In this document: piece after piece, positions 1-62,357 of the stretch
How positions within the stretch are numbered: the first letter of the stretch is position 1
Layout of the letters: the number at the start of each line of letters is the position of its first letter
Source: a virus
Lineage: Duplodnaviria > Caudoviricetes
IMG/VR virus record: IMGVR_UViG_3300017734_000004
Span: 1 to 62,357 of that record
Reading direction: 5' to 3' (one strand)
Length of the DNA: 62,357 bases
Program-made: the position numbers and the translations under genes
The notes under the pieces: generated by a model
What the model was told of the DNA's origin: nothing
What the model saw: only the letters and a program-made list of their open reading frames with translations
Databases searched by the model: none

Positions 1-123
1 GATCTTAATAAGGTTTTCGTCAAGGATTTGCTTCATGATGTCGTCGATGATTTGGTCCATGACGTTAGCGCCGTCACTCCAGTTGCAGTACCCTTTTGTG
101 GTTCGCAACCAGTTTGTGAAATC
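1..123. repeat. 123-bp direct terminal overlap, copy 1
   Basis: Identical to 62235-62357. Confidence 0.97.
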
Positions 124-411
124 GTTGTACAACTTTCGGGATGAGACGTGGTATCCTACGTACTCCACCATGTCTTCGTAGTACGGGTCCATCGTGATGT
201 CAGGGTCGTCGTCCCACCCCGTCTGCCACAGGTTGCAGAACCCGTTGTTGTAGTAGTCGTATCCGATACGAGAGATGGAACGGAGGGCTTCGGGTAGGCC
301 GTCCTCAGCTTCGCCAGACGCGGGGACGAGTTGCTTCCATGCTTCGTTGTATTCGGTTTGGTACTTGCCTTTGTTGTCCCAGTAGGACGTGGATTGTGTG
401 TCGTTTGACAT
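1..411 (-). CDS. Conserved phage hypothetical protein, 140 aa, spans the circular junction and ends at 62223
   Basis: Manual translation MSNDTQSTSYWDNKGKYQTEYNEAWKQLVPASGE...YDYYNNG...ENLIKI|GQA*. Not in the ORF track. Stop overlaps the ATG of 62008..62226 (ATGA). Confidence 0.85.
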   Translation of the reverse strand, partial: MSNDTQSTSYWDNKGKYQTEYNEAWKQLVPASGEAEDGLPEALRSISRIGYDYYNNGFCNLWQTGWDDDPDITMDPYYEDMVEYVGYHVSSRKLYNDFTNWLRTTKGYCNWSDGANVMDQIIDDIMKQILDENLIKI

Positions 412-432
412 TGAATTGAATTTAAAATTTTG

Positions 433-478
433 CGGTGCGGAAGGAATCGAACCTTCGGATAACCCAACCATTCGCACC
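433..478 (-). ncRNA. tRNA-like element with acceptor stem and T-arm but no anticodon arm
   Basis: GGTGCG-AATGGTTGGGTTATCC-GAAGG TTCGATT CCTTC-CGCACC-G; intergenic. Confidence 0.55.
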
Positions 479-492
479 TGTGGTCTATATCC

Positions 493-630
493 TTACTTAT
501 CTACCACTTTCTTTTCTTCTTTTTTCTTACGTGGCGGAATCTTCACGATGCTGATGACGTGCCTGTCCATCGCTTTGTTGTGCATGTCCGCTATCTCCTT
601 GATGAGATTGAATTGTTCGTTGTCTTTCAT
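493..630 (-). CDS. Hypothetical protein (45 aa, MKDNEQFN...)
   Basis: Start re-assigned to the ATG overlapping the upstream stop. Confidence 0.6.
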   Translation of the reverse strand: MKDNEQFNLIKEIADMHNKAMDRHVISIVKIPPRKKKEEKKVVDK

Positions 631-812
631 GAATGTGAGTTCCAAAATTCTACTTCTTCGTCGTGAATGCGGAACTCGATGCAGCCGCTGAGGTCGCCGT
701 TCCACACCTCAATCCACACTCCGTGATCGTCACGCGCTCCCATCACATGGGAGGCGTAATGGCCTTCTTCCTGTAGTGCCTTGACTGCACCTTCGCATTG
801 TTCTTGTGTCAT
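627..812 (-). CDS. Hypothetical protein (61 aa, MTQEQCEG...)
   Basis: ATGA coupling on both sides. Confidence 0.65.
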   Translation of the reverse strand: MTQEQCEGAVKALQEEGHYASHVMGARDDHGVWIEVWNGDLSGCIEFRIHDEEVEFWNSHS

Positions 813-964
813 GTCAAATCGAATGCTGTATCCTTGAAAGCCCTTTCGAGGATGAGTTTGTTGTTTCCGTCTGCGTGGTACCATGCGTCGATGAGTCGGT
901 ACATGAAGCCACCGCAGGTCTTTTGTCGGCTCTCGAGTTTTTTGTGTTGCTCAGATAAAGTCAT
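809..964 (-). CDS. Small phage hypothetical protein (51 aa; GGF...AD.NN..L..AF motif)
   Basis: Start re-assigned to MTLSEQ; tightly packed with neighbours. Confidence 0.65.
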   Translation of the reverse strand: MTLSEQHKKLESRQKTCGGFMYRLIDAWYHADGNNKLILERAFKDTAFDLT

Positions 965-965
965 G

Positions 966-1301
966 TCAGTTTGCTTTGCGTTTGATGTCCTTGCCTGTCT
1001 TGACAGACACACGTCCGTCGCTGTGCAGGTGATACTCGTACTCCTCCCACATGTCTGCTTTGATAGGTACGATGCCCCACCCTGTGTCACGGGACTTGTC
1101 AAGGTTGAACTTGTCTGCATCCCATGCGCTTGACCGCAGGAGTTGTGCAAGTTTGTAGTCAGGGTCGTCGCCTCGTGCTTCTGTGAAGGACTTGTTGAAC
1201 TCCTCAAGCCAAGGCAGGGTGGCCTCTTCGTACCCGTCCCAGTGTTTGTAGGCCTTTACAGAGGGCTGTCCCTCCACAATGATTGTTGCTCGTGTTGCCA
1301 T
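966..1301 (-). CDS. Conserved phage hypothetical protein (MxTR...YxHWDGY motif)
   Basis: MATRATI...YKHWDGY...EEYEY motif pattern recurrent in phage early regions. Confidence 0.8.
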   Translation of the reverse strand: MATRATIIVEGQPSVKAYKHWDGYEEATLPWLEEFNKSFTEARGDDPDYKLAQLLRSSAWDADKFNLDKSRDTGWGIVPIKADMWEEYEYHLHSDGRVSVKTGKDIKRKAN

Positions 1302-1302
1302 G

Positions 1303-1602
1303 TTAGCTGTATTTTTCGTCGATTCGGTTCTGTGTTTCTTCGCAGCACTCCACCCATGCCTTCATGTTGATGAGTGAGATGCGCCCATCCTCACGGGGCT
1401 TGTTGTGCTCTGCAAGGATTTCATCTTTCTTGGATATGTAGTGGTCGAGGCCACGCTGAAGGCAGTCCATGACTACCATCTGTACGAGTGCCCCGTGGTT
1501 GTTGTACCCAGTCATGAGGTGTGACATGAACTCGTCGTTGGTCATATCATTGGTTGTTTTCAGGGCCGTCTTTCCGTCTATGCTTGTGGTTAGATGCTTC
1601 AT
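1303..1602 (-). CDS. Hypothetical protein
   Basis: ORF track; operon packing. Confidence 0.7.
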   Translation of the reverse strand: MKHLTTSIDGKTALKTTNDMTNDEFMSHLMTGYNNHGALVQMVVMDCLQRGLDHYISKKDEILAEHNKPREDGRISLINMKAWVECCEETQNRIDEKYS

Positions 1603-1763
1603 GCTGTAAGGATTTTTTGGATTACGTCAAGGTTCTCGGATGTGATGGGGCCGTACTGCTGAACCTGTCGGTCAGCGAAGTACTGAACTTTTTCGGCGTT
1701 GCCCTGTGCCATGTGGTAGGCAATCTTTGGAAGATAGCCGTTGGGATGCTTCGGATTTCTCAT
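1599..1763 (-). CDS. Hypothetical protein (54 aa, MRNPKHPNGYLPKIAYH...)
   Basis: Manual translation; ATGA overlap with next gene; starts just after hairpin H1. Confidence 0.7.
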   Translation of the reverse strand: MRNPKHPNGYLPKIAYHMAQGNAEKVQYFADRQVQQYGPITSENLDVIQKILTA

Positions 1764-1776
1764 GGTTTTGAGGATT

Positions 1777-1846
1777 TAAGTTGTACTAATCAATAAGAAG
1801 AAGACTCATTCTGAGTCTTTCTTCTTCTTATTGATAGTACTACTAA
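1777..1846. promoter_or_regulatory. Long imperfect hairpin H1
   Basis: TAAGTTGTACTAATCAATAAGAAGAAGACTCA / TGAGTCTTTCTTCTTCTTATTGATAGTACTACTAA inverted repeat, followed by GGG. Confidence 0.8.
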
Positions 1847-1850
1847 GGGT

Positions 1851-2072
1851 TCATCGTCGTCGAGGAATTGTTGTCTCCCATCGTGAGGCGTGTCCGTTCA
1901 TTACGTCCGTGTAGTATAGGAGAGACATCGGTTTGTAGATTCTGTTGGCCCCGCGATAGTTCGTGATGGCCTCTTTCATCTCCGTGTGTGTGAGCTTGTC
2001 ACCCTTGGGTGTCTTGAAGGAACCGTCCGTGTACACGATCCCGTGGTACGTCTGATGCTTGATATCGCTCAT
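1851..2072 (-). CDS. Hypothetical protein (MSDIKHQTYHG...)
   Basis: Start re-assigned to the ATGA overlap. Confidence 0.65.
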   Translation of the reverse strand: MSDIKHQTYHGIVYTDGSFKTPKGDKLTHTEMKEAITNYRGANRIYKPMSLLYYTDVMNGHASRWETTIPRRR

Positions 2073-2236
2073 GCCATCCATTCTACATTGGACATGTCCC
2101 ATCCGAGTTCGGATAGCTTTTCATCGTTGTCGATTGATGGGTCCGATGTGTCCCAATCGCAGTGTACGAGATGCACGACTCGTGTCGTGTAGTCGAAGAT
2201 GGCAATTTGATTCTTGCCGAGGTGAATTTCAGCCAT
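2069..2236 (-). CDS. Small acidic hypothetical protein (55 aa, MAEIHLGKNQ...)
   Basis: Manual translation; fills the gap in the operon. Confidence 0.7.
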   Translation of the reverse strand: MAEIHLGKNQIAIFDYTTRVVHLVHCDWDTSDPSIDNDEKLSELGWDMSNVEWMA

Positions 2237-2247
2237 GATTGTGGGGT

Positions 2248-2424
2248 TTACCAGTTACGAAATGTTTGTGAAGTCTTGCCGCATTTACGCGGACTCATGT
2301 CATCGTATGCGGTGCCGTATCGGGCACCTGTCGTGGAGCATGAGGATAGGAGGATGGACACGATTGCCATCGCCGTGAACCACGCAAGCACCGCAAGTGT
2401 GGATGTGTCAAATACTTTTTTCAT
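2248..2424 (-). CDS. Small putative lipoprotein (58 aa)
   Basis: MKKVF...AMAIVSILLSS-C: basic N-terminus, hydrophobic stretch, lipobox LSSC. Confidence 0.7.
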   Translation of the reverse strand: MKKVFDTSTLAVLAWFTAMAIVSILLSSCSTTGARYGTAYDDMSPRKCGKTSQTFRNW

Positions 2425-2753
2425 TGTTCGTTGGTTTCAAATTGGTAATCGTCTTCGTCCTCCCACTCCGTGTAGTATGCGTAGTCCGTCTGGAACGCGA
2501 TGGTCATGAGGTCATGGTCGTCCTCCTTGTTTTGCAGGGCTTGGTCTCGCGCTGTCGCGAACTCATCCCATGCCGTGGGGTCTTGTAGTTCCTCGGCAGT
2601 CACGTTCTCGATGTCGTGCAGGATGGTGTCCCTGTCCTTACGGCACTCTGCCAAGGCATCCTTCTCGTGCTTGGCGTAGAACACGCCGCATCCGAAGACC
2701 CATCCTTTGTTCATCCCTTCGCCCGTCACGGAGCATTGTCTTGCGTACTTCAT
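2421..2753 (-). CDS. Acidic hypothetical protein
   Basis: ARQCSVTGEGM..GW...YYTEWED; ORF track. Confidence 0.75.
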   Translation of the reverse strand: MKYARQCSVTGEGMNKGWVFGCGVFYAKHEKDALAECRKDRDTILHDIENVTAEELQDPTAWDEFATARDQALQNKEDDHDLMTIAFQTDYAYYTEWEDEDDYQFETNEQ

Positions 2754-2762
2754 GTGTGTTGT

Positions 2763-3080
2763 TTAGAGGTCAATGATTACGCCCTTCGATTCCAGGGCAT
2801 CGGTAATAAATTCAGGGAGTTCGAAGCACCCATCGTACCCCACAAGGCGTACACTTCCATCCTCATCGTGTGAGGTCTCGAGTACACCCTCTGCATAGAA
2901 GCGGTCGCCACCTGACTCAAGGTCGTAGGTCTCGTACCATCCACCATACTGATGGTCGGGGTCAATGGACACCGAAGAATCCATCACGACGTTGGTCGCT
3001 CGGTCGTGGTCCACGTCGTATGCCGTGGTCATTGCCACGTGTGGTAGCGTGGTCTTGAACTTGTGTGTGAACTTCATCAT
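2763..3080 (-). CDS. Acidic hypothetical protein
   Basis: YAEGVL...LVGYDGCFELP; ORF track. Confidence 0.75.
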   Translation of the reverse strand: MMKFTHKFKTTLPHVAMTTAYDVDHDRATNVVMDSSVSIDPDHQYGGWYETYDLESGGDRFYAEGVLETSHDEDGSVRLVGYDGCFELPEFITDALESKGVIIDL

Positions 3081-3283
3081 TCTTGGGTTTCAGAGTCAGA
3101 CAAATCGTGGCACATGGATGCAAGGACTTCTCGCAGGTCGTTCGTGCCCAGGTAGTAAAAGACGTGTTCAATCATGGCATTCGGTCCCATGACCTCTTTG
3201 ATGTCATCGAATGCGTAGCCCAGTTCGGACTTGGACATGTACCCACTCTCCGTGAGCTTTGTGTGAAGGTTGGTGAATTGCAT
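3077..3283 (-). CDS. Hypothetical protein
   Basis: ORF track; coupled start and stop. Confidence 0.65.
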   Translation of the reverse strand: MQFTNLHTKLTESGYMSKSELGYAFDDIKEVMGPNAMIEHVFYYLGTNDLREVLASMCHDLSDSETQE

Positions 3284-3462
3284 TATCCGAGAAGGTTATC
3301 GAGTTGGGATTCAAGTCGGGCAGCCGCCGCATCTGCCTTACGAGCGATTTCCATCTGCACTTGGATGGCACGTTTGGTGGCTTCAATCAGGTCTGACTTT
3401 TGAGCCATGAAGTCGGCAAAGTCGCGCTCCGCCTCGACGAGGATGATGTTTGATTCTGACAT
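3283..3462 (-). CDS. Small coiled-coil protein (59 aa, MSESNIILVEAERDF...)
   Basis: Manual translation; TAATG overlap; starts after hairpin H2. Confidence 0.7.
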   Translation of the reverse strand: MSESNIILVEAERDFADFMAQKSDLIEATKRAIQVQMEIARKADAAAARLESQLDNLLG

Positions 3463-3484
3463 CGGGAAAGGATTTGATGGTTGT

Positions 3485-3547
3485 TAAGAGGGGTTTGTAA
3501 TATATATCTCTCATGTTCCATGAGATATATATTACTAACCTCTCTAA
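3485..3547. promoter_or_regulatory. Long imperfect hairpin H2
   Basis: TAAGAGGGGTTTGTAATATATATCTCTCATG-TTC-CATGAGATATATATTACTAACCTCTCTAA. Confidence 0.85.
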
Positions 3548-3563
3548 AGGTTGGTGGATTCGG

Positions 3564-3809
3564 TTAGGCTGACTGGGCTTTGAGCCACTCTTCCTTGCTA
3601 CGTAGGTACGCTTCCTGCGGCGTCTCACCTGCTTGGATGACCAACTTCTCACACGTCTGCCGTGACGGACGGGATGGTCTGTCTGACTTTGCCGCCATCT
3701 CTGAACGGATGAAGGTCGTGGATACGTGGTTACGTACTTGACGTACATCTGTCCACTCGGTCTTAGTCATACGCTTGGCTCGGCGTGCCTTCTGTGCAAG
3801 AGTTTGCAT
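3564..3809 (-). CDS. Basic hypothetical protein
   Basis: ORF track; AATTCAATTCAA leader. Confidence 0.7.
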   Translation of the reverse strand: MQTLAQKARRAKRMTKTEWTDVRQVRNHVSTTFIRSEMAAKSDRPSRPSRQTCEKLVIQAGETPQEAYLRSKEEWLKAQSA

Positions 3810-3826
3810 GGTGATTGAATTGAATT

Positions 3827-3880
3827 GTTACTGACCCCCCAAGGGGGGGGTTTCGGCTACTGAAGCCTCGTCAGAGTAAC
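3827..3880 (-). ncRNA. Type I hammerhead ribozyme
   Basis: GUUACU-CUGACGA-GGCU(UCAGU)AGCC-GAAA-CCCCCC(CCUU)GGGGGG-UC^AGUAAC: full catalytic core, three perfect stems, GUC cleavage triplet. Confidence 0.92.
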
Positions 3881-3891
3881 TGGGTGGGGTG

Positions 3892-4137
3892 TTAGCCCTT
3901 GTTGATGAGTTCAATCAACTGAGCCTTTGTCATCTTGCTGATGTTCTTAGGCTTTGACTTGGTTGCCTTCGCCTTAGGCACCACGACTTCCAAGGCTTCG
4001 ACCTCTGAAGTGAGTTGGGCCAACAGCTTGAGAGCCAAGGCTTTCTTCTCCTTGGTAGTGTAGTAACTAGCCTTGTTGATTGCTGACTTGGTAGCAGACA
4101 TCAAGGACTGGGGGGTGGTGGTGGATTTTGCCATCAT
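3892..4137 (-). CDS. First gene of the - strand arm; basic protein with a C-terminal Rho_N/HeH-like motif
   Basis: C-terminus NISKMTKAQLIELIN. Confidence 0.6.
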   Translation of the reverse strand: MMAKSTTTPQSLMSATKSAINKASYYTTKEKKALALKLLAQLTSEVEALEVVVPKAKATKSKPKNISKMTKAQLIELINKG

Positions 4138-4145
4138 TTAAGGAT

Positions 4146-4214
4146 TAAGATGTTGTAAGTAATAAAAGAAGATTCGTAAACGAATCATCTTCTTTTATTA
4201 CTAACAACCTCTAA
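4146..4214. promoter_or_regulatory. Long imperfect hairpin H3
   Basis: TAAGATGTTGTAAGTAATAAAAGAAGATTCGT-AA-ACGAATCATCTTCTTTTATTACTAACAACCTCTAA. Confidence 0.85.
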
Positions 4215-4237
4215 GGGGTCGGAGTCTGGGGTCATGG

Positions 4238-4261
4238 ATGAGTACTACTGGTAGTACTCAT
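4238..4261. repeat. Perfect 11-bp inverted repeat
   Basis: ATGAGTACTAC-TG-GTAGTACTCAT. Confidence 0.8.
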
Positions 4262-4681
4262 ATAGGAGGAGGGAGTTGTCCTCGGGCCGCTTATAGCTGG
4301 GGGAGCCAAACCCATAACTAACCGCATATACCTACACATGTACGGTTACTTAACGTGGGGTACGGCAAGTGGCTGTCGCACAGCGCGGTACAAAAAGCTG
4401 AAAGTATACAGCTAACCGCGTATGTGTGCGGTAGATAGGTATCATAAGCGCGTTTCGGGTAGGCGTGCGTGGCGTGCGCATATATATATAATCCCCTTCA
4501 CCTCTATGACTCAAAAAATTTTCAGCCCAAATTTTTCTTCAGTCCCTTTTGCGCCCTTTTTTCTGCGGTTGCGCGATTCTTCTCCGATCAGTCTGATTTG
4601 TGTAAGCCTTATGATTACTAATCACTTACACATCTACACCTAGACTGTTTGTTTACTCTTGTTTTTGTCATTTTTCTTGGT

Positions 4682-4689
4682 TAACTTTG
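4682..4689 (+). promoter_or_regulatory. Bacteroidota -7 promoter box at the start of the + strand arm
   Basis: TAACTTTG with TTG about 20 nt upstream. Confidence 0.6.
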
Positions 4690-4875
4690 CTGTAGTTAGA
4701 AGCGAAACCAGAAAAACCTAACGATTCGTTTTGTTTTTAGTGTATTCGTAGAGAATCACTGGTAGTTCGTTTTAATTGGTTCTTAAGAGACAGCTGCATC
4801 CTGTTTCTTTGGCACATAATCATCATTATACCGCATTATCTTGGTGATCACGGGGGCTGCTGATAGCTTAGCCCC

Positions 4876-5136
4876 ATGAAAACAGTAGCATTCTTACTAT
4901 CAGTCTTGCTTGTGGGCTGCGTCTCAGTGCCCACTAAGGTCTACACTCACCCAGAGAGGTACAGTTGCGACCTTATCATACCTACATCTTGGAATGGGTC
5001 ACATCCCGTAGAGTACTTTGAACACAGGCTGTCTGTTGGTCAAACATACCAGGACTATTTGGGCATGGAGTATACCTTGGTGGCAACAGATCAAGACACA
5101 GTATTCTTGCTCAGGGTAGAGGTTGCCCGTCCGTAA
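4876..5136 (+). CDS. Putative lipoprotein
   Basis: MKTVAFLLSVLLVG-C lipobox. Confidence 0.7.
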   Translation: MKTVAFLLSVLLVGCVSVPTKVYTHPERYSCDLIIPTSWNGSHPVEYFEHRLSVGQTYQDYLGMEYTLVATDQDTVFLLRVEVARP

Positions 5137-5165
5137 CTTTTCGTAGCTCACAGCGTATCCAAAGT

Positions 5166-5333
5166 ATGTGGTCAACATACATAATGGATTTCTTGCTCCT
5201 GTTAGCAAACTATGGTCAGGCTATTGATCCTGAGTCTCATGCTGCATGCATGGACTTTAATGGTGATGGGTTCATTACGATGTATGACTTTCTTGAAATG
5301 CTGTCTCGGCAGCCGTTAATCGAAAAGGAATGA
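5166..5333 (+). CDS. Dockerin/EF-hand-like microprotein (55 aa)
   Basis: Manual translation: DFLLLLANYG...DFNGDGFITMYDFLEML; ATGA overlap with next gene. Confidence 0.6.
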   Translation: MWSTYIMDFLLLLANYGQAIDPESHAACMDFNGDGFITMYDFLEMLSRQPLIEKE

Positions 5334-5560
5334 AGAATACAGATTACCATCAGATTGTAAAGGCGGTTGTATCTAAAGACTTCAAGTTTATCCATATCGA
5401 TGCGGGGATGGGTAAGAACGGATTGCAGAGAATCGTTACAGAAACGAGTGAGGAGGAGATCGCTCACTGCTATCTCTACCCGATCATAGATAGAATTGCT
5501 AGGAGTGAGTTTAGAGACCTTGAGGGAGTTGCCTTGACTGTTAAGATTACCTGGGTCTAG
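5330..5560 (+). CDS. Hypothetical protein
   Basis: ORF track. Confidence 0.55.
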   Translation: MKNTDYHQIVKAVVSKDFKFIHIDAGMGKNGLQRIVTETSEEEIAHCYLYPIIDRIARSEFRDLEGVALTVKITWV

Positions 5561-5590
5561 TTGGTGTTTACATCATTGTCAAATAAAATG

Positions 5591-5598
5591 TACATTTG
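5591..5598 (+). promoter_or_regulatory. Bacteroidota -7 promoter box
   Basis: TACATTTG, intergenic. Confidence 0.55.
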
Positions 5599-5610
5599 TA
5601 AAAAGATGTC

Positions 5611-6045
5611 ATGGCACTTACGGTAACCATTCAAGAGGATCTAATCCTTAGCGGTAACGATAAAAGCAATACCAATACTGCGACGTTTGGTTGCACAAAT
5701 CTGGACCACCGCATCCTTACAATTACAAATGCAGAGAAGAGCATCTTGCTTTTTGACGCAGCCAACGAGGCTGGCACAATTAAAGACAACAACCTTACCT
5801 ACCTAAGGATTACAAATCTGGATGCTAGTGATACTATCACTCTGCGTGTACGTGATGCAGCCCAGGAGTTTATGGTGCAGGTTAATGGTCAAGGATCTTT
5901 TCTGTTGACAGAAGATAAGTTGGATGCAGATGCCACGGGGAGTGAAGAGGTTACCAGTCTTTCTCAGATCAATAAGATCTCAGCTGTATCTTCTGATGCC
6001 TCTGGATCTTTGGTTGAAATTTATGCTGCATCTGTATTCGCATAA
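5611..6045 (+). CDS. Beta-rich putative virion (decoration) protein
   Basis: MALTVTI...YLRITNLD...GSFLL; resembles 20376 and 20771. Confidence 0.6.
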   Translation: MALTVTIQEDLILSGNDKSNTNTATFGCTNLDHRILTITNAEKSILLFDAANEAGTIKDNNLTYLRITNLDASDTITLRVRDAAQEFMVQVNGQGSFLLTEDKLDADATGSEEVTSLSQINKISAVSSDASGSLVEIYAASVFA

Positions 6046-29702: not shown

Positions 29703-30619
29703 TGGCACTTGAAGACGTCGTATACAATGGCTTAAGAGTTGATGCCACAGAAAGCACTGAGGCCATGAACTATTTGCCTCTGTTCCAGGTTATTGCAGAC
29801 TACATTATTACTATGGATGGTGACGACTACACCAGCAATGTGTCAGACGTAGCTATTCAAAACATCGCTATGCGCGGCATTAGAGAGCTGGGGTTTGATG
29901 TAACCTCTCGCGTCCGCTCTCTTAAGCGATCGGTAGAATCAAACAACACTGTCATCTTGCCAGAGGATTTTGTGGACATCGTCAAGCTTGGCGTGGTAGA
30001 TGGCGATGGTGTCATCAGAGTTTTTAAGCAAAACAAAAACCTTAACTATTCTAGAAAGAATAAGGTCAATACTGACAGTGGTGGGAATCTCGTAGGCACT
30101 GGTGACACCTCTGATCAGTACAACTTAAGCCCACATCCACTTGCACCCAACAGACTTCCAGACAGAGAAGACGACAAGGGCGCAACCAGCTCTTCAACAC
30201 CAGACAGCGGTGATTTAGACTTCTACGTTTTTGAAAACTACCTGTACCAGGGTGGGCTTGGAAGGCTTTACGGATTGGGTGGTGGTCACGGACCAGGAGA
30301 ATACAGAATTAATCTTGATCAAAACAGAATTGAGATTGCCACGGATTCTCAGACAACAGACGTGGTGATTGAATACATTGCCGACCAGGCAAGAACAGCC
30401 AATCCTGTTGTCCACGTGTATGCAGAGGAAGCCTTGCGGTGCTACATCTACTACAAGTTGTGCGAGAGAAAGTCTACTGTGCCCCAGGGTGAGAAGATGA
30501 GAGCTCGCGCTGAATATTACAACGAGAGAAGAAAGGCTAAGGCTAGAATGTCAGGCTTCAGCAAAGAAGAAGCGCTGCACACCATTCGCAAGAACTTCAA
30601 GCAAGCACCTAAGTATTAA
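29702..30619 (+). CDS. Tail tubular / ring protein
   Basis: RGIREL.FD, LPEDFV..VK, IEYIAD, EEAL..YI.Y. Confidence 0.7.
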   Translation: MALEDVVYNGLRVDATESTEAMNYLPLFQVIADYIITMDGDDYTSNVSDVAIQNIAMRGIRELGFDVTSRVRSLKRSVESNNTVILPEDFVDIVKLGVVDGDGVIRVFKQNKNLNYSRKNKVNTDSGGNLVGTGDTSDQYNLSPHPLAPNRLPDREDDKGATSSSTPDSGDLDFYVFENYLYQGGLGRLYGLGGGHGPGEYRINLDQNRIEIATDSQTTDVVIEYIADQARTANPVVHVYAEEALRCYIYYKLCERKSTVPQGEKMRARAEYYNERRKAKARMSGFSKEEALHTIRKNFKQAPKY

Positions 30620-33600
30620 TGATTGATAAGGTCATACCCCAAAGGCTTAACTCTGACGTAGATTCAAGGTTTCGCCCATCAACCGATATGATTGATGCGC
30701 TGAACATTGCGTTTCAAGAGAGTTACAATTCTGACGCTGGGGCAGCTGGCAATGGCGCATCAAATAATTTCTCAGGCGATGCAGGGGTAATCAAGCCCAT
30801 GCCGTCAAACAAAGACATTGAGGCCATTACGGGTATGACCTCCCTGATTGACAACAGCACAAATGTCAGGGTGATTGGATCTGTGTCCGACGAGGTCTAC
30901 AACGTAATCTACTTCTTCGCCTGGTCAGACAATGTTGATCAAATGGGTGTGTATGCATGGGATCAAGACAAAGTCTTGCCTGGTACTCACGGTGCTGGTG
31001 ATTACGTCAAGGTATATGCATCACCAAAGTTTGACTTCCCCAGCGACGGATTTGTCAAAGGAGACGTAGTACATGTAGGTCAGCGTAAAAATGTTGATGA
31101 CGAGGATAGAGTCCGAAATGTAATTCTATACTTTACTGACAACAAAAACGAACCAAGGAAGCTGAACATCTACGATGTGATGGAGGCAAACCTTGGAAGC
31201 TACAATGACATCGACATCTTGGACATGATCACCGCATGCCCAAGGACTCCACTGACTCCTATCTCGTTTGAATTTGATTTTGATCCAGCAAGAGCTACTT
31301 CAAATTTCACGAGCCTACCTGGTTTGCAGTTTGCTTATCAGCATGTTTACTCAGACAACGTAGAGAGCGCCCTGTCTACATACTCAAAGCTTGCTGTGCC
31401 TCCAGCCTACTTAGCTCTAGGTCAGGTTACAGGCAGCGTGAATCTTCAGAACAGGTGTGTGCTAACAATACCAAGGGGCTCTAGAGAGGTTGACCGAATC
31501 CGTGTTTTAGTTAGGTATGGAAACCTTGGCTTGTGGAGGCTTATTGATGAGCTCAAGGAGTTGCCAGCAACAGACAGTGTAGAGTACAACTTCTACAATG
31601 ACCGCATCCTTATTCCTGTGTCAGAGAACACAACAGGCATGCCATACAGCAACTTGCCTAGGATTGCACAAGCACAAAGCGTGGTCTCTGACAGGCTCTT
31701 GTACGGAAACTATGTAGAGAGCTACCCAGAGGTTGAAGCGTCTGCAAACATTGACCCCGTCTACAATGGCACACCTCGTCAAGGTGATGTAATTGAGATT
31801 GATGTTGTGCCTGTGATAAATCAGCTTTATGCAAGGTCAGATAGTGAGAGCACTACCACTGAGCGCATCTACAAAAATCTTGGAACAAATAGGGTTGCTG
31901 GATATCAGATTAATCTTGATGGTGTTCCGCAAGACTTTTTGGAAGCGGGAACAATTATACAGGTAGACTTCACTACTGAGCCTGATAATAATTTTCACTT
32001 CTATAACCAACACAACTCGTACCACGCAAGCAGAGAGAATGGCTTTTATGGTGGCGAGAACAATGCTACTGGTGCAGACCTTGACAATGTCAACGATGCC
32101 TTAGTTGATGTAATTGCATCGGGCGATAGTGCTGGTGACTTTGTTGACAACGTAAATCAATACAGCAGGGGTCGCCAATACTTTGGAAAAAATCAAGGCG
32201 TTAAGTTTATTGACGGCCTAAACAAGTGGAAGTACCAGGGATGGGGTAGTAATGCTTTGCCGTATGGTGATGTCTTGGGATTCGAGAATGGCGGAACTGT
32301 AGATGTTGAATATGGCACCTCTGCTGCCAACCCATTTATCTTGGAGTCTAAGCCTTTGCGCTTTGCCGTTACGTTTAAAACGATGTACGACACGGATGGC
32401 CCAAGAGTTCTGGTGCAGCAGGCTTTGTACCACTACCTCACAGGGGCCCCGATGCCTGTGAATAGCGAGAGCCAAGCATTCGCATCTATTGATGAGCTGC
32501 CAGACCCCGTAGATACTGCGTCTTATGAGATTAATTTGCTTCTTGACAACCAAGACACCATCAACGCGCAATCTGGCAACGACTACAGGAAGCATTTGAT
32601 TGTTGGGTTAACGACTCCCTCAGGGTCACCTTCTAATACAGACGAACCAATTGGTTTTTTCATTGTCAACGAGGCCAAGGTAGAGATGAAGCTGAAGGCC
32701 TTCACATACATGGAGGACCAGTATGACACAGACCCAGGGTCAGCAAACTGCTATCTTGGTCTGGATCTAAGCAGTCTGACTGATGTCGATGTGATGACGT
32801 GCGTGCCTTATGTGCCCGTGGGTCAGAAAATTGCCATGAAGATTAGGAGCGGACCTTTTAACGTCGATAACCCATGGTATGGTGTAGGCCCAGCAAACAT
32901 TGTCAATGGCAATATCGCATATTGGACTGTGTTTTCTCGTGAAATTATGCGAGACTCTATTCCCGAAGACCTCAATATTTATGATACGGGCGACGCAATC
33001 AGCTGGCTTGGACCTGTAGAATACACCGAGAGCGGGGGTGTTAATGATGCGATTATGGGGGATGACACGAGGAATATGTATTTCTTCACCACCGTTCCTC
33101 AATACGCGTCAGTCTTTGCAGAACAAAGTTTAGCCTCGGGCAACGATTTCGCGGGTTCAGGGATTGACCCAGTTCAAAATTTAGGGCTGGCGATGTGCCC
33201 CGCAAACTTTAACAACCCTCGAGGCCAATACTGTCTTGGCTATATGCTTGATAGTGGTGAAACTTTTGCAGAGCCAATAAAACTGATTAATACCAGCGAT
33301 GAAATTTATGACTATGCCGAAAGCGAGCTCAATGTAATTGGCTCAACGCTTGTCAATGAGTGCGCTGTCTTTTCGTTAGTTGATGGCGAGGGTGGCCCAG
33401 GCTTTACCAAGAACAGAACTGGTGTTGGAGAGTTTGTTTCTTGGGGAAGCATCTCCCCATACGTCCTATTCAAAGGCGACATCCACAATCGTTGGGTCAT
33501 CAACGTACAGGAACTGCCCTATACAGGGTACGTTCCCAACCCTATTGGAGCAGGCTCTATTGCTGCTGCCCTAGACCTTAGCGATAGCGACCCAGGCGAC

Positions 33601-36384
33601 ACCCCAGCTATCGGTCAAGAAGATGACGGATGGACTAAGAGCAAGGGCTTCCTCAAGAGCTACAGAAACCTTGACATTAACACCCCATACAACTCTGTAG
33701 ATAGGGATTATTTCCAGGGCGCTACAGCCGACCTCACATATGATCACCCCATTCCCGATACGGTGAATACGTGGATTGAGATCACCGTGCTGTCAACATA
33801 CATCAGCGGAATTACTGGGCTCTATTACCCTCGGTCGTTTAAAACAAATGCCAATCACGATTTTGGAATTGTGTACTATGACCAGAGGGGCAGGTCAGGA
33901 AACGTCAACTACTTAGGAAACACGTTTGTTAGAGGCTATAGCAATGCTGACAGGGGTCTCGATGCTAAGGGTAGAGTTGATGTGCTGTTAAATCTGACCA
34001 GCAACCCACCTGACTGGGCAACTCAGTATCAGATTGTATACAGCCCGAACAGCACTGTTGGGGACTTTGTGCAGTACACCACGGGTCCTGCATTTGTGGC
34101 AACAGTCGCAGAAACAGACCCATCGGCTGGCAATGAGGCCTTGATCTATGTGAATCTAGGTCACCTTCAGGGGGTAAATAATGTTTCTTACAGCCATGCC
34201 TTTGGTGCCGTCAACAATGATGGCGGAAAAGATTTGTACACTCATCAGCAAGGCGACAGGCTGCGCATCTTGTACTACACAGAGTCCGATGGTGACGATC
34301 TGGTGTATCCAAGAGAGTATGTCTTTGATATTGTTGATGTCGTTACGCTTACTAGGAATAGGGTCGATAACATTTTGTACAATGAAGGGACTGCATCTAC
34401 AATATCTCCCGCAAAGTCTGGGCAGTTTCTTGTACTAAAGAACAATCCAAACGCCACTGGCTTTACATACACGGATGTTTTAAGCTCATACAATCAAGCG
34501 GATAGTACTCAAGATGTAGATGGTGCAACTGCAATCAACTATTGGAACAACAGGACTGTCGTTGAGATATTTACTCCAAAGAAAGTTCAAGACTTTGACC
34601 AAAGGTTTTACTACGAGATTGGAGAGAAGTATGACGTAACTGTCACAAGCCAAGGAAATCCATTGCATTCTCAATCATCAATCCTTTTGAAGGATGGGGA
34701 TGTCTGGTGGAGAAGGGTGCCTGTCAACCTTCAAGAATACGATGAAGATTCAAGTCGATTCCTTACTTTGTTTTCTGCAGCAGGTACTGGGCAGCAAGAT
34801 GAAGATGAAAGCCTTCCAGCTTTTAACACTCAGGTGTTGGAAACTATGGCGTTTACAGATGTAATCCCTGGATGCAAGACGCTGGACTGGGGTAAGCCTA
34901 AGGTTATTGTGCCAGGGTCTCAGTCTTTGTACAAGAGATCGTCTTTGACGTACTCAGAAAAGAACGACTACGCATCTAGAGCAAACAAGTACACCATCTT
35001 CAATGCTCCGTCACTGAACTTCAAGGACTTACCCAACGAGTACGGAGCAATCAACTACATCCTTAACGACTACGACAATGCTGTGGTTATCCAGGAAGAT
35101 AAGGCCAGCTCTATTCCAGTAAACAGAAACATCATCTCTACTGCAGGGGGCCAACAGTCTCTCGTTGCATCTAAAGATGTGCTGGGTACTCAGAAGTTTT
35201 ATGCTGGTGACTACGGTGCTGACAACAACCCAGAGAGTGTTGTTAGAGCAGGTGAGGCTATCTACTTCGCTCACAAGGGCAGAAGAGAGGTATACAAGCT
35301 GACCAGAAATAAAGGACTAAAGGTTATCTCAAAGGCGAATATGAAGGCGCACTTTAACAATCTGTTTGTGCAAGCCATTGAGGCAGAAGCAAGGGGAGAC
35401 GGTAAGGTTCGTGTCGTGTCTGGATATGACCCTCTGCGAGATGAGTACATCATCTCAGTCCACAACATGAAGGACTACTCAAGCAGCGAAGCAAACTACA
35501 ACCAGCTTACTGGTGTGTTTGACGGCGTTGGCATCGTGATTGATGACTCTGATGAGGGAGGCGTATTTGAACCTGGTCCCGTGGTGCCAGTTGATTTTGA
35601 CGGAGATGGCAATATTATTATTCCAGGATGCACTAACTCGTTGGCTTCAAACTACAACCCCGAAGCCAACACCGACGACGGATCATGTGTCTTTGGACCA
35701 GCTCCTGATGATGACGACGGGGTTACAGAGATAATCCCTGGCTGCACATATCCCAATGCCACGAATTACGACCCGACAGCCACTGTTGACGACGGTTCTT
35801 GCATCTTCCCAGATGCCGATGATCCAATCAGTGACTTCGACTCTGCTCGTCCTGTCATCCAATTGATCCCTTCTGATGTCTTAGATTTTGGAACTGTTGA
35901 AACCACTGAATCAATACAAAAGCTACTTGTAATTAAAAATGTAGGTGAAGGTGTTTTGAGAATTACAGGGTTTGAGCTAGTTTCTCTTGTCACAAACAAC
36001 ATCCCAGCACGATTTTTATTGACTGGCCCAAATGCTAACCCAACTGGAGCGAACCCTATAGTAATTGAAAGCAATAGTCAAAAGGTAATACCAGTTGTTG
36101 TAACACCTACCGAACCTGGGTTTGACGTTTCTGCCAATCAAGATTTCATCCTTAGTGAGCTTAGAATCTCAAATAACGACGCTCCAAAAGACGTCTTGTT
36201 TTTGGCAAACTTTAAAAATGATGTCGTCAGGCCTGATGATGACGATCCCGTGAGACCTGATGATGGCGATCCAGTGAGACCTGATGATAGCGGACCAGTA
36301 AAACCAGACGACAATGAACCTGTTGGTCCGATTGGCAGTGTTATGGGGCTGGGCGTCAGCGGCAATAGCTTTGTTCCTGTATAA
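30619..36384 (+). CDS. Tail stabilisation (nozzle) protein with C-terminal Cys repeats, Ig-like domain and PDD repeats
   Basis: LN.DVD.R...IDALN, YFTDN.NEPRKLN, RLLYGNY.E, GIVYYD..GR, YG...NPES, GYDP...EY. Confidence 0.8.
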   Translation: MIDKVIPQRLNSDVDSRFRPSTDMIDALNIAFQESYNSDAGAAGNGASNNFSGDAGVIKPMPSNKDIEAITGMTSLIDNSTNVRVIGSVSDEVYNVIYFFAWSDNVDQMGVYAWDQDKVLPGTHGAGDYVKVYASPKFDFPSDGFVKGDVVHVGQRKNVDDEDRVRNVILYFTDNKNEPRKLNIYDVMEANLGSYNDIDILDMITACPRTPLTPISFEFDFDPARATSNFTSLPGLQFAYQHVYSDNVESALSTYSKLAVPPAYLALGQVTGSVNLQNRCVLTIPRGSREVDRIRVLVRYGNLGLWRLIDELKELPATDSVEYNFYNDRILIPVSENTTGMPYSNLPRIAQAQSVVSDRLLYGNYVESYPEVEASANIDPVYNGTPRQGDVIEIDVVPVINQLYARSDSESTTTERIYKNLGTNRVAGYQINLDGVPQDFLEAGTIIQVDFTTEPDNNFHFYNQHNSYHASRENGFYGGENNATGADLDNVNDALVDVIASGDSAGDFVDNVNQYSRGRQYFGKNQGVKFIDGLNKWKYQGWGSNALPYGDVLGFENGGTVDVEYGTSAANPFILESKPLRFAVTFKTMYDTDGPRVLVQQALYHYLTGAPMPVNSESQAFASIDELPDPVDTASYEINLLLDNQDTINAQSGNDYRKHLIVGLTTPSGSPSNTDEPIGFFIVNEAKVEMKLKAFTYMEDQYDTDPGSANCYLGLDLSSLTDVDVMTCVPYVPVGQKIAMKIRSGPFNVDNPWYGVGPANIVNGNIAYWTVFSREIMRDSIPEDLNIYDTGDAISWLGPVEYTESGGVNDAIMGDDTRNMYFFTTVPQYASVFAEQSLASGNDFAGSGIDPVQNLGLAMCPANFNNPRGQYCLGYMLDSGETFAEPIKLINTSDEIYDYAESELNVIGSTLVNECAVFSLVDGEGGPGFTKNRTGVGEFVSWGSISPYVLFKGDIHNRWVINVQELPYTGYVPNPIGAGSIAAALDLSDSDPGDTPAIGQEDDGWTKSKGFLKSYRNLDINTPYNSVDRDYFQGATADLTYDHPIPDTVNTWIEITVLSTYISGITGLYYPRSFKTNANHDFGIVYYDQRGRSGNVNYLGNTFVRGYSNADRGLDAKGRVDVLLNLTSNPPDWATQYQIVYSPNSTVGDFVQYTTGPAFVATVAETDPSAGNEALIYVNLGHLQGVNNVSYSHAFGAVNNDGGKDLYTHQQGDRLRILYYTESDGDDLVYPREYVFDIVDVVTLTRNRVDNILYNEGTASTISPAKSGQFLVLKNNPNATGFTYTDVLSSYNQADSTQDVDGATAINYWNNRTVVEIFTPKKVQDFDQRFYYEIGEKYDVTVTSQGNPLHSQSSILLKDGDVWWRRVPVNLQEYDEDSSRFLTLFSAAGTGQQDEDESLPAFNTQVLETMAFTDVIPGCKTLDWGKPKVIVPGSQSLYKRSSLTYSEKNDYASRANKYTIFNAPSLNFKDLPNEYGAINYILNDYDNAVVIQEDKASSIPVNRNIISTAGGQQSLVASKDVLGTQKFYAGDYGADNNPESVVRAGEAIYFAHKGRREVYKLTRNKGLKVISKANMKAHFNNLFVQAIEAEARGDGKVRVVSGYDPLRDEYIISVHNMKDYSSSEANYNQLTGVFDGVGIVIDDSDEGGVFEPGPVVPVDFDGDGNIIIPGCTNSLASNYNPEANTDDGSCVFGPAPDDDDGVTEIIPGCTYPNATNYDPTATVDDGSCIFPDADDPISDFDSARPVIQLIPSDVLDFGTVETTESIQKLLVIKNVGEGVLRITGFELVSLVTNNIPARFLLTGPNANPTGANPIVIESNSQKVIPVVVTPTEPGFDVSANQDFILSELRISNNDAPKDVLFLANFKNDVVRPDDDDPVRPDDGDPVRPDDSGPVKPDDNEPVGPIGSVMGLGVSGNSFVPV
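36226..36321 (+). repeat. Four 24-bp tandem coding repeats (V[RK]PDDxxP)
   Basis: VRPDDDDP VRPDDGDP VRPDDSGP VKPDDNEP. Confidence 0.85.
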
Positions 36385-53850: not shown

Positions 53851-54720
53851 TCAGTTCAGGTACTTGAGCAGCACTTCGTTGCGCTTCGTGTATCGCAGTC
53901 GGCGCATTGCCCCCTCACGAATCTGACGCACACGCTCTGCCGTCAAGTCGAACAGCTCACCCATCTCGGTATTGGACAATGCTTGTCTACCGTCAAGACC
54001 AAACGAGTGTGTGATGATCGCCTGCTCCCTGAATGACAGGATGCTCAGGCACGATTCGATGTCACCCATCAAGCTCTCTTTCTCAAGGCCTTCATCGGGG
54101 CTCTCGGTATCGGCGCTCTCAATCAGGTCGCCCATCGTCATTGAACCATTGTCATCTCTGTTGATAGGGTTGTCCAAGCTTGCAGTCCTGACTGCGCTTT
54201 TGATAACGAGGTCAACATCTTGCACACGCATGTCCAAGTAGTCGCCAATCTCTGCTGATGTCGGTGCTCTTTCGAACTCCTGCTCAAGCACAGCGTATGC
54301 GCTCCTGACTTTGAGCATGGCTGAGATCTTGTTCTGAGGCAAGCGTACCATTCTGCCCTTGTCTGACATGGATGCCAAGATGTTCTGCCTAATCCACCAC
54401 ACAGCATACGAGATGAACTTGAAGCCACGTGTCTCATCGAATCGTTGAGCTGCTTTGATCAGCCCGACGTTGCCCTCACTGATGAGGTCTGATAGCGTGA
54501 GCCCCTGGTTTTGGTATTGCTTGGCTACCGACACAACGAATCTGAGGTTAGCCTTTGTGAGCTCATGCATGGCAGCTTCGTCGCCCCCTCTGATGAGCTG
54601 TGCCAGTTCGATCTCTCTTTGTGGTGAGATCATAGGCTCCTTGGCGATGTCGTACAGGTATTTATCGAGGGCACCTTGATCCCTGTTTGTGATTTGCTTT
54701 GTGATTTTAAGCTGTCTCAT
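53851..54720 (-). CDS. rpoD: RNA polymerase sigma-70 factor, Bacteroidota primary-sigma-like
   Basis: MRQLKITK..TNR...LDKYL, NLRFVVSVAKQYQNQG, RFDETRGFKFISYAVWWIRQ, ERVRQI. Confidence 0.92.
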   Translation of the reverse strand: MRQLKITKQITNRDQGALDKYLYDIAKEPMISPQREIELAQLIRGGDEAAMHELTKANLRFVVSVAKQYQNQGLTLSDLISEGNVGLIKAAQRFDETRGFKFISYAVWWIRQNILASMSDKGRMVRLPQNKISAMLKVRSAYAVLEQEFERAPTSAEIGDYLDMRVQDVDLVIKSAVRTASLDNPINRDDNGSMTMGDLIESADTESPDEGLEKESLMGDIESCLSILSFREQAIITHSFGLDGRQALSNTEMGELFDLTAERVRQIREGAMRRLRYTKRNEVLLKYLN

Positions 54721-55105: not shown

Positions 55106-55620
55106 TAGATTGTTATTTTATTGTTTGTCAAAGGGTGAACGTAAGACGAGCTGTATTTAATTACCTCGTAACTCTTGAGGCCTTGAAGGTCACTCAGCAC
55201 GAGCATGCTTATCTTGTCTTTTCTGTTCCGTCTTTGATATATTTTCCTGTAGGCATGGCGCTTAGACACAACGCTTTTTGTGAAGTCAATGTTGCATAGG
55301 CACCAGTCTAAAAGTTCTTCTCTTTCAATACGGACGAAGCCCCCCACCTCACATACCTCGAAGGCGATCCACTTGGCTTCACCCATCATCCATCCGAACT
55401 GTCCATGTACGTTGCGGAACTCCACCCATATCTCATCAGGCAGATTGTTTCCTTTGACATCGACCCCGTCGTTGCCATGCCAGAAGTCTACGTGAAGCTC
55501 TATATCTTCATCACGACTCGACTTCCTTATATCTTTGAATACTCTAGCGTACCTACTGGCACTTACTCCTCCGTCCCTCCACGATTGCTTTCTTCTTTCA
55601 TTACTGGGTCCGCTTTGCAT
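55105..55620 (-). CDS. PD-(D/E)XK-type nuclease
   Basis: HVDFW...VDVKG...IWVEF.NV.G..GW. Confidence 0.65.
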   Translation of the reverse strand: MQSGPSNERRKQSWRDGGVSASRYARVFKDIRKSSRDEDIELHVDFWHGNDGVDVKGNNLPDEIWVEFRNVHGQFGWMMGEAKWIAFEVCEVGGFVRIEREELLDWCLCNIDFTKSVVSKRHAYRKIYQRRNRKDKISMLVLSDLQGLKSYEVIKYSSSYVHPLTNNKITI

Positions 55621-60862: not shown

Positions 60863-60873
60863 TGTGTGTTTTG

Positions 60874-60954: not shown

Positions 60955-61563
60955 TCAGTGCATCACCAACCCCACTTTGTTGGATGCGTTGAACCACTTG
61001 GTCGCCATGACATCAGACTTCATAGCATTGACATACCCTGCCCCCTCCAAGGCCTCCACGTCGTCAAAGATGCGACAGTGACGGTGCTTGCTGTAGTCGA
61101 TAAGCTCATCTCGTGTGCCCCCCTCACTGAAGATGATGTCAAAGTTCTCGGGCATGGTCCTGTGTAAAAATAGAGGAATGGATTTCGTGTATGAATAGAA
61201 GCGGACATTGGGCAAGACCTTGGCAATCTCAATCCACTTGTCGATGTATGCCGTGGAATAGTAGTCGCCAGAGTCATGGACACGGAGGATGTCTACACGT
61301 TTCTTCGTCAACTCAGCCACCATCTTGTCTACGAAGGAGTCGCATTTGGTTGCCATGTATCTGTACTGAAAGGCAGGGGCGACATTGCTCCACACATACG
61401 CACCCTTCTGTGCATAGCAGAACTTAGCACACTCACCTGCAAAGGGGCAGGTTCTCTTGCCGTCCGAATCTTGGAATGCAGGGATACCGAAGTTGAAGAC
61501 CCGTTGCCCAATGATGTTGCTCGTCCTTTTGAGCTTGGTGTTTTGAGTAATGAGATGTGGCAT
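60955..61563 (-). CDS. Gp88-like (radical-SAM-related) protein, 202 aa
   Basis: TCPFAGECAKFCYA.KG, RVHDSGD, YSYTK; start re-assigned to MPHLITQN. Confidence 0.75.
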   Translation of the reverse strand: MPHLITQNTKLKRTSNIIGQRVFNFGIPAFQDSDGKRTCPFAGECAKFCYAQKGAYVWSNVAPAFQYRYMATKCDSFVDKMVAELTKKRVDILRVHDSGDYYSTAYIDKWIEIAKVLPNVRFYSYTKSIPLFLHRTMPENFDIIFSEGGTRDELIDYSKHRHCRIFDDVEALEGAGYVNAMKSDVMATKWFNASNKVGLVMH

Positions 61564-61577
61564 TGAATTGAATTGTA

Positions 61578-61641
61578 TAAGAGGGGTTTGTAATATATCT
61601 CTCTCAATTACATTGAGAGATATATTACTAAACCTCTCTAA
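61578..61641. promoter_or_regulatory. Long imperfect hairpin H4
   Basis: TAAGAGGGGTTTGTAATATATCTCTCTCAAT-TAC-ATTGAGAGATATATTACTAAACCTCTCTAA; near-copy of H2 with compensatory changes. Confidence 0.85.
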
Positions 61642-61727
61642 TGGTTTGAGTCCTTTCGGTCCAGTCCCCATCCGACACCGATGACGATGCCACATGCAAG
61701 ACAGGTGAAGCAAAGCAGAACAATCAT
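61638..61727 (-). CDS. 29-aa membrane peptide
   Basis: MIVLLCFTCLACGIVIGVGWGLDRKDSNH; ATGA overlap; stop lies at the foot of H4. Confidence 0.5.
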   Translation of the reverse strand: MIVLLCFTCLACGIVIGVGWGLDRKDSNH

Positions 61728-62234: not shown

Positions 62235-62357
62235 GATCTTAATAAGGTTTTCGTCAAGGATTTGCTTCATGATGTCGTCGATGATTTGGTCCATGACGTT
62301 AGCGCCGTCACTCCAGTTGCAGTACCCTTTTGTGGTTCGCAACCAGTTTGTGAAATC
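62235..62357. repeat. 123-bp direct terminal overlap, copy 2
   Basis: Identical to 1-123. Confidence 0.97.

Follow-up and report, generated by a model that had tools for sequence, protein, structure and literature searches.

Four long, imperfect hairpins (H1–H4) occur in the genome of an uncultured phage (IMGVR_UViG_3300017734_000004), of which the whole IMG/VR record (62,357 bp; hereafter the window) was analysed. They are the sole long hairpins of this complete genome, lie in gene-sense orientation in gaps of a leftward early gene module (in its leader in case of H3), differ in sequence while sharing one geometry, and serve as junctions of swapped gene cassettes. Maintenance of their pairing by selection is supported by related copies. 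By analogy with processing sites in the early mRNA of other phages, they may tentatively be read as promoter-less intercistronic RNA stem-loops, i.e., as the punctuation of a long early transcript; cleavage by ribonuclease III (RNase III) specifically is held to be less probable than this wider reading. The four elements are:

H1, 1777..1849, minus strand: between the stop codon (1851) of an open reading frame of 83 amino acids and the ATG (1763) of one of 54 amino acids
H2, 3485..3551, minus strand: directly after gene g01 and 24 nt ahead of the next ATG (3462)
H3, 4146..4217, minus strand: in the leader, 9–12 nt ahead of the first gene of the leftward operon
H4, 61578..61644, minus strand: 15 nt ahead of the ATG (61563) of a GP88-family gene encoding 202 amino acids

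Place, anatomy and stability of the hairpins

The window carries an exact 123-bp direct terminal repeat (1–123 and 62235–62357) inside a minus-strand coding frame, which is the assembly overlap of a circular or permuted genome. The unique length is thus 62,234 bp, and the early module runs continuously across the record ends, from 4137 to 53851. Within this module the hairpins occupy three of the eight gaps of at least 30 nt, plus the leader; the remaining gaps of that size contain no comparable fold. The 3' base is 10–24 nt away from the next ATG, and the upstream stop codon is 0–13 nt away from the 5' base; the TAG of the small open reading frame upstream of H4 even lies within the 5' base of the hairpin. 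On the plus strand the elements (63–72 bp) begin with TAAG at 1777, 3485, 4146 and 61578 and end with CTAAnGG at 1849, 3551, 4217 and 61644. In the gene-sense (minus) reading, each shows AAACC-n-TTAG ... CTCTTAA.

An ungapped palindrome scan (score of at least 12) returned exactly four sites in the 62,357 bp, namely H1–H4, and none in each of five Markov shuffles; a stricter repeat search recovered H2 and H4 only. H1–H4 also lead the 14 sites found by a fold-based scan (at least 20 enclosing pairs) with 36, 33, 32 and 35 pairs, the other ten having 20–30. A covariance model of the H2/H4 type detected H4 (E 3.5e-20), H2 (2.7e-18), H3 (4.1e-4) and H1 (0.079) in the window, the next matches having E > 3. 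No hairpin reaches the gathering score of an Rfam family, the best matches being pre-miRNA look-alikes (24.6–26.2 bits compared to thresholds of 62–130); the tRNA of the window alone passes. As RNA, the folds are far more stable than dinucleotide shuffles (z of -6.21 for H1, -6.85 for H2, -7.33 for H3 and -8.67 for H4). In none of the eight folds (four hairpins, both strands; z from -6.2 to -8.7) was any of 200 shuffles as stable.

Alignment of arm against arm reveals the common geometry. From the base, 2 bp are followed by defect 1 (T.T or bulged T), 4 bp, defect 2, ~5 bp and defect 3; towards the tip follow 12–16 perfect, A+T-rich bp, a bulge of 2–4 nt, 6–8 bp and a loop of 3–4 nt. The helix totals ~28 bp with four defects, and the G+C content of the stems is 0.29–0.34. 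The top stem-loop of H1 reads GACTCA-GAA-TGAGTC. The original prediction, made from the sequence of the window, had described four hairpins at these positions with shared geometry, and coordinates and arm alignments bear this out. Its minus-strand consensus CCnTTAG-N6-7-TA(G/T)(T/C)AATA is matched exactly by H3 and H4 in the N7 form, H1 and H2 having N6; a scan with the N7 form yielded five matches at up to two mismatches, compared to 0.70 expected. The compensatory changes near the loop claimed for H2 and H4 are likewise evident in the top stem (CATG/CATG versus CAAT/ATTG). A natural variant of H2 with an A inserted after 3536 was observed in two of four sequencing runs; it turns the A.A mismatch of defect 3 into the bulged form known from H4.

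Selection on the fold and breaks of homology at the hairpins

With g18, the gene next after H4, as query, 12 IMG/VR loci were recovered. A hairpin stands directly upstream of the g18 homologue in five of these (L001–L005), with differing sequences, and is absent in seven more distant loci. An exact-pattern scan of IMG/VR matched 71 loci and gave 18 well-folding matches, 13 of them members of the family and five not. Altogether, the hairpin family was found on 10 contigs besides the window. In two of three complete relatives the covariance model detected five sites each; in the third, four model matches are joined by a first hairpin from the fold-based scan. No model match was obtained in five hairpin-less relatives (one of them complete), and no such hairpin is present in positions 35000–60850 of MW202828, the nearest GenBank record (49 % identity of the large terminase, TerL). 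Literature searches on Flavobacterium or Cellulophaga phages yielded nothing relevant to such an element.

In the complete relatives G001 and G002 all sites fall within the leftward module. Two loci, L085 (G001:57700-58300) and L086 (G002:51500-52100), contain an extra, truncated family hairpin with the GGTTAGTTATATAAT... core that lacks the TTAG/CTTAA base. It is situated beyond the primase-helicase gene, ~30 nt ahead of a gene start.

Two sets of copies show covariation. Among 11 copies of the H2/H4 type, 96.3 % of the cells pair, compared to 31–63 % in slid controls; eight of 28 pairs changed on both sides, and none of 500 shuffles reaches the covariation score. Among seven copies (six distinct) from the position of H3, pairing amounts to 86.3 % versus 42–53 % when slid, 14 of 27 pairs changed on both sides, and again 0 of 500 shuffles reach the score. 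Both sets are MAFFT alignments with the structure taken from one member, which favours the unslid register, and kinship alone can beat shuffles without any structure, so that the count of double changes is the firmer figure. MAFFT alignment of all 14 first copies gave no consensus fold, and subfamily alignments were used instead. Selection on the structure, as proposed in the original prediction, is thus supported by covariation in relatives.

Across 23 distinct copies aligned arm against arm, defects 1–3 are fixed in spacing and varied in identity: T.T or bulged T at the first; A.C, A.A, G.A or bulged A at the second; a mismatch or a bulge on either arm at the third. The tips vary. The lower stem, defects included, covaries as well. 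Since such defects have no physical existence in duplex DNA, their conserved placement together with the covarying lower stem argues for a folded single strand, rather than a duplex operator, as the probable active form. Operators for a dimeric phage regulator, one of the roles offered by the original prediction, are therefore scarcely credible. The dyad symmetry, the conserved base motif and the presence of a second, small perfect palindrome (4240–4262) would agree with such a role, but not the extent of the element (63–72 bp) and its fixed orientation, stems that vary within one genome and covary over their whole length, or asymmetric defects that keep their positions while changing their identity.

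Several features set the gene-sense strand apart. The orientation of the core relative to the genes is identical in every listed copy (32 entries, 11 records). Loops of the form G-N-A on the sense strand are present in 15 of the 23 copies and T-N-C loops in none, these copies being related and the counts therefore not probabilities. The A.C of defect 2 in H2 and H4 is a defect on the sense strand only, the opposite strand forming a G.U pair.

Protein synteny between the window and its relatives reveals a conserved frame of hairpin, g00, g01, hairpin, variable orphan open reading frames (ORFans), hairpin, g18 and replication genes. In the window, the genes of this frame are:

g00, 3892..4137, minus strand: first gene of the operon, Lys-rich product of 81 amino acids, kept in hairpin-bearing relatives
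g01, 3564..3809, minus strand: basic, helical product of 81 amino acids with Arg-rich N-terminus
g02–g14, 156..3462 and continuing at 61645–62226, minus strand: variable ORFan cassette region between H2 and H4, with H1 in its interior
g18, 60955..61563, minus strand: product of 202 amino acids (Pfam GP88 family), the anchor gene downstream of H4

No homologue of g00 was found in any of the five hairpin-less relatives searched. Most ORFans are specific to the window: among g02–g17, homologues in relatives exist for g02, g05 and g09 only, and no PHROG function could be assigned in the variable cassette region.

Homology to relatives breaks at the hairpins. Nucleotide homology to L002 extends from 4689 to 3497, a position inside H2, and sets in again at 61647, at the 5' edge of H4; between these breaks the window has ~4.1 kb (the 123-bp repeat subtracted) versus 1.2 kb in L002. 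Homology to L021 ends at 3484, the 3' edge of H2, and the gene following H1 in the window is the one following the H2-type hairpin in L021, so that H2 and H1 enclose a cassette of 1.7 kb. In case of L003, L004, L005 and L051, homology begins 7–13 nt after H4, indicating that the hairpin itself was replaced. Hairpins of one type can be found in slots that differ from genome to genome: H1 shares 80 % identity with the first hairpin of L051, and H4 shares 94 % with hairpins located at other slots of L019 and L034. Within one genome, copies are often identical (two each in L001 and L051). Since hairpins fill gaps, breakpoints at gene boundaries tend to coincide with them, and the breaks are to be read with this caution. 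The role as cassette junctions had been missed in the original prediction.

The identical copies within L001 and L051, and the absence of the family from more distant relatives, would also suit palindromic repeats that are selfish or neutral, spread through recombination and bring the phage no benefit. This explanation is quite improbable, since orthologous positions are kept over 10 contigs with compensatory change, and since defect geometry, orientation and spacing to the ATG are conserved.

Contigs of four runs of one study, compared with positions 1–6000 of the window, show the hairpins, much microdiversity and seven joints, so that the ORFan region varies within the natural population. 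A recurrent joint (809/812->2767), present in all four runs, skips ~1.95 kb of ORFans, shows 6–9 other letters at the joint and touches no hairpin. Other population joints fall within 2077–2874.

Proposed RNA punctuation of an early transcript and alternative roles

No sigma-70-like promoter was matched at the hairpins in a promoter scan. The motif TAnnTTTG, the -7 box of Bacteroidetes, is present 8–45 nt upstream of 11 of 53 rightward and none of 30 leftward genes (Fisher p 0.006), although it is not enriched genome-wide (35 versus 36.6 expected). A host-type promoter of the form TTTG-N17-23-TAnnTTTG gave two matches (1.44 expected), none of them at the hairpins, and enrichment of the motifs TTAGTAAT and GGGG-TT-ATATAT is weak. 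Because the leftward genes lack TAnnTTTG, the early module looks like one long unit that would be driven from the conserved, ~650-bp non-coding region between the divergent modules (4217–4875). This region is block-conserved in seven relatives (partly in L006 and L009); besides the features below it contains a GGGGATTATATATAT block, and either a short RNA or an attenuator might be encoded there.

4480..4515, minus strand: candidate leftward early promoter (TTGAGT-N17-TTATAT) in the GGGGATTATAT block, conserved in seven of seven aligned relatives; only its sequence suggests promoter function
4660..4689, plus strand: rightward promoter of presumed Bacteroidetes type (TTG-N20-TAACTTTG), conserved
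4396..4413, minus strand: terminator-like stem followed by T5, conserved, downstream of the candidate leftward promoter
4240..4262, minus strand: small perfect palindrome ~25 nt upstream of H3 with arms covarying in relatives (z -2.6)

The nearest counterpart with respect to gene exchange are the promoter-early stem-loops (PeSLs) of T4-type phages, a repeated motif flanking ORFans with breakpoints in the motif (PMC2839356, PMC4122927). The hairpins of the window share with them the repeated intergenic position around ORFans, a hyperplastic early region, near-identical copies within a genome, and breakpoints of insertion, deletion and replacement in the motif. They differ in lacking a sigma-70- or Bacteroidetes-type promoter in or beside the hairpin, where PeSLs have a strong early promoter, and in their A+T-rich, imperfect stems as opposed to the polyG/polyC of PeSLs.

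PeSL stem-loops terminate efficiently (PMC2839356). The hairpins could accordingly be the stem-loop half of such an element minus its promoter, i.e., terminators or attenuators insulating cassettes. Their position directly after stop codons and their very stable folds are in agreement with this. In H1 and H3 a T-rich 3' arm succeeds the tip, which resembles a weak terminator and was caught by a simple terminator scan. Yet H2 and H4 have no T-rich arm, and the sequences following the full stems (CTTAAATCC, CTTAACAAC, CTTAATCC, CTTATACAA) contain no T-run, confirming the lack of U-tracts noted in the original prediction and contrasting, like the A+T-rich stems, with canonical intrinsic terminators. 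Moreover, H3 precedes the first gene, relatives possess canonical terminators of GC-stem and T-run elsewhere (L006), and efficient termination would silence the replication and sigma genes, no promoters being located downstream. A terminator function is thus rather improbable.

That the hairpins are transcribed, that RNase III cuts them, and that they affect stability or translation is our inference. Transcription of the leftward operon would start in the divergent control region near 4.5 kb and yield a long polycistronic RNA, and each hairpin would fold on this mRNA into an imperfect helix of ~28 bp just upstream of an unstructured, G-poor translation start. As punctuation, it could be a substrate of the host's double-strand-specific RNase III or at minimum a barrier to decay, thereby splitting the message into segments of separate stability and freeing the downstream start site, as at the early RNase III sites of T7. 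The conserved helix defects might restrict or direct cleavage. Since the same 60–70-nt element recurs along the operon, it could furthermore act as homologous linker for gain, loss and movement of ORFan cassettes.

The early mRNA of T7 is punctuated by irregular leader and intergenic hairpins, the RNase III sites R0.3, R0.5, R1, R1.1 and R1.3. Of the roles considered in the original prediction, an RNase III-type site fits best by anatomy and position. As in T7, sequences differ while geometry is shared, the copies stand in the leader and in gene gaps just upstream of the next start, and defects interrupt a stem of about two helical turns or longer; the ~28 bp found here exceed the at least ~20 bp of helix typical of such sites, and leader and intercistronic placement in gene orientation can be read from the sequence. 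Differences concern the longer stems (~28 bp), their four defects versus one internal loop in T7, the conserved base and flank, the other host phylum, and the restriction of the window's copies to the ORFan part of the operon. In PMC3867540, the idealised substrate of E. coli RNase III is given as 22 bp, and bulges or mismatches are described to cause single-strand cuts that leave stabilising 3' hairpins.

Several observations weigh against RNA punctuation. A search for RNA runs containing positions 1–4500 of the window found none. Along the ~13-kb operon of the window, hairpins occur in the first 5 kb only, whereas T7 sites occur throughout. Covariation cannot tell RNA from single-stranded DNA. 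In 15 of 24 copies the fold of the antisense strand is slightly more stable (mean difference 1.3 kcal/mol, Wilcoxon p 0.025), and G.U pairs number 34 in antisense versus 10 in sense. Simple selection on a sense RNA would predict the opposite, although the flanks account for most of these pairs and for much of the difference in stability; evidence on the strand is mixed. The conserved AAACC before TTAG (outside the stem) and the CTCTTAA base hint at sequence-specific recognition, which RNase III does not need. Copies within one genome are more alike than orthologous copies, which also fits a genome-specific trans-acting factor. Finally, one of the seven population joints touches a hairpin, and weakly so (3537->3815, one run, 21-nt side).

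The main rival among the RNA-level readings is processive antitermination of the nut- or put-like kind, in which the nascent hairpin and a single-stranded CUCUUAA at its 3' base would load host Nus factors together with g01 and/or g00 on the polymerase. In this rather unlikely mechanism, neither terminators nor Rho would stop the polymerase along a 13-kb operon with few promoters. In sequence, the conserved CTCTTAA of the base may be similar to the boxA core. The order of hairpin and CUCUUAA-like motif, in the leader and further downstream, is reminiscent of lambda nut and rrn boxB-boxA sites, as are the small basic early proteins encoded nearby. The first copy lies in the leader, between the candidate promoter with its terminator-like stem and the first gene, with more copies downstream, and the tip (6–8 bp stem, 3–4 nt loop), set off by the bulge, has the size of a boxB. 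On the other hand, the fold engages the boxA-like heptamer in base pairs, the stems have four times the length of boxB, top stems vary between the copies of one genome, and no N homologue was found.

The small, basic, helical g01 product with its Arg-rich N-terminus might act as such an antitermination factor. In relatives, g01 is always located directly upstream of an H2-type hairpin, and it is present in five of five hairpin-bearing versus none of five hairpin-less records; this co-occurrence equals one phylogenetic event, and only one of the five negative records is complete. The N-terminal segment contains a Trp that lacks conservation. Searches for g01 in PHROG and Pfam gave no family match, an Atlas search gave no usable match, and the AlphaFold model is helical and of low confidence (predicted local distance difference test 71, predicted template modelling score 0.30).

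A folded element at the DNA level, extruded by supercoiling or formed on the lagging template, is likewise considered unlikely, though somewhat less so than antitermination; it could represent a structure-specific recombination site, a hairpin promoter, or a signal for priming or for an origin. The perfect A+T-rich middle stem favours extrusion, a leftward fork would expose the sense strand as single strand on its lagging template, breakpoints coincide with the hairpins, and covariation fits DNA as well as RNA. In addition, the phage has genes for a primase-helicase and a PDDEXK exonuclease as well as a sub-threshold match to T7 endonuclease I. In contrast, extrusion as a cruciform is disfavoured by the four defects of the helix, and still the lower stem covaries, and the element always stands beside a start codon in gene orientation. 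No Y1 transposase was found in the phage genome, no tyrosine recombinase (PF00589; the positive control was found in 14 of 14 genomes), and no virion RNA polymerase in PHROG, Pfam and PDB sequence searches of the proteins of 1921 and 1752 amino acids, though a very divergent enzyme could escape these.

Cruciform or single-stranded DNA promoters as in N4 and the F-plasmid Frpo, also suggested in the original prediction, thus find no support, the hairpins showing no promoter motif either. They resemble those promoters in the tip (6–8 bp stem and 3-nt loop) and in clustering in the early region, but the small hairpin sits inside a 28-bp stem and its G-N-A loops are on the non-template strand. A crAss-like Cellulophaga phage was reported to use host polymerase at sigma-70-like middle promoters, its virion-polymerase early transcripts having no common motif (10.1101/2020.03.07.982082).

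One may also speculate, as a very improbable case, that this phage is lytic and has an integron-like cassette system working without an integrase, with the hairpins as its folded-strand recombination sites. Integron attC sites are similar in being imperfect palindromes of ~60–70 nt, conserved only at the base, with extrahelical or mismatched bases at fixed positions, a variable tip and one orientation, bounding promoter-less cassettes; this is a resemblance only. The GTT/AAC core (TTAG/CTTAA here) and an integrase are lacking, several genes lie in each interval, and the first copy precedes the first gene. Just as improbably, a single-stranded hairpin would be marked by its conserved extrahelical defects together with the TTAG/CTTAA base, and phage enzymes would cut or anneal it. 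Candidates for these, named with as little confidence, would be the sub-threshold T7 endonuclease I-like protein, the PDDEXK exonuclease and a hypothetical annealing protein. If true, early ORFan cassettes would be exchanged at defined structured sites and not by chance homology.

Almost nothing is known about early gene expression of Bacteroidota phages after transcription start. RNA punctuation predicts processed RNA ends at fixed helix defects of a covarying, easily synthesised 70-nt element present in at least 11 related genomes. The element could make RNase III-type mRNA processing, or alternatively antitermination, directly accessible to study in Bacteroidota, and could supply natural insulator or connector parts for operon building in this phylum. 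It would furthermore be a promoter-less example for the idea that regulatory stem-loops are the joints where phages shuffle accessory genes.

Host and further genes

PHROG matches of the large terminase, the portal and structural proteins are to tailed phages. Since the terminase is 42–49 % identical to those of Flavobacterium, Cellulophaga and related phages, and since no Shine-Dalgarno sequences are recognised ahead of the genes upon reading the sequence, the host is most likely a member of the Bacteroidota. No close DNA relative of the window was found among GenBank phages. An RNase III domain is absent from the phage genome and present in the control genome of Bacteroides thetaiotaomicron.

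Rightward genes (4422–53847, i.e., ~4.4 to 53.8 kb) encode structural and lysis functions. The leftward module comprises g00, g01, ~16 ORFans, the GP88-family gene, a tRNA-Arg, the PDDEXK exonuclease, the primase-helicase, the weak T7 endonuclease I-like match and, as its final gene, a sigma factor. The tRNA-Arg (TCT; 60873-60947, minus strand) follows directly downstream of the GP88-family gene. The PDDEXK nuclease (58506-59267, minus strand) belongs to DUF3799 and is exonuclease VIII-like. The T7 endonuclease I-like protein (55601-56068, minus strand) scores 26.6 bits, below the Pfam cut-off of 29.1, and is assigned by PHROG as endonuclease/Holliday-junction resolvase. A DNA polymerase was not identified among the proteins scanned. 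The sigma-70-family factor (53851-54720, minus strand; 289 amino acids) contains regions 1.2, 2, 3 and 4.

The virion protein of 1921 amino acids (30619-36384, plus strand) has a single DFDGD motif at residue 1659, within C-terminal PGCT...NYNP...DDGSC repeats, which is probably a chance match and not a polymerase site; its neighbour of 1752 amino acids contains an LPD38 domain. The gap between g00 and g01 (3810-3891, minus strand) contains a C7/G6 hairpin in a small branched fold (z -1.9), followed by ACAATTCAATTCAAT. The same ACAATTCAATTCAAT leader precedes the ATG downstream of H4 and is also present in L002.

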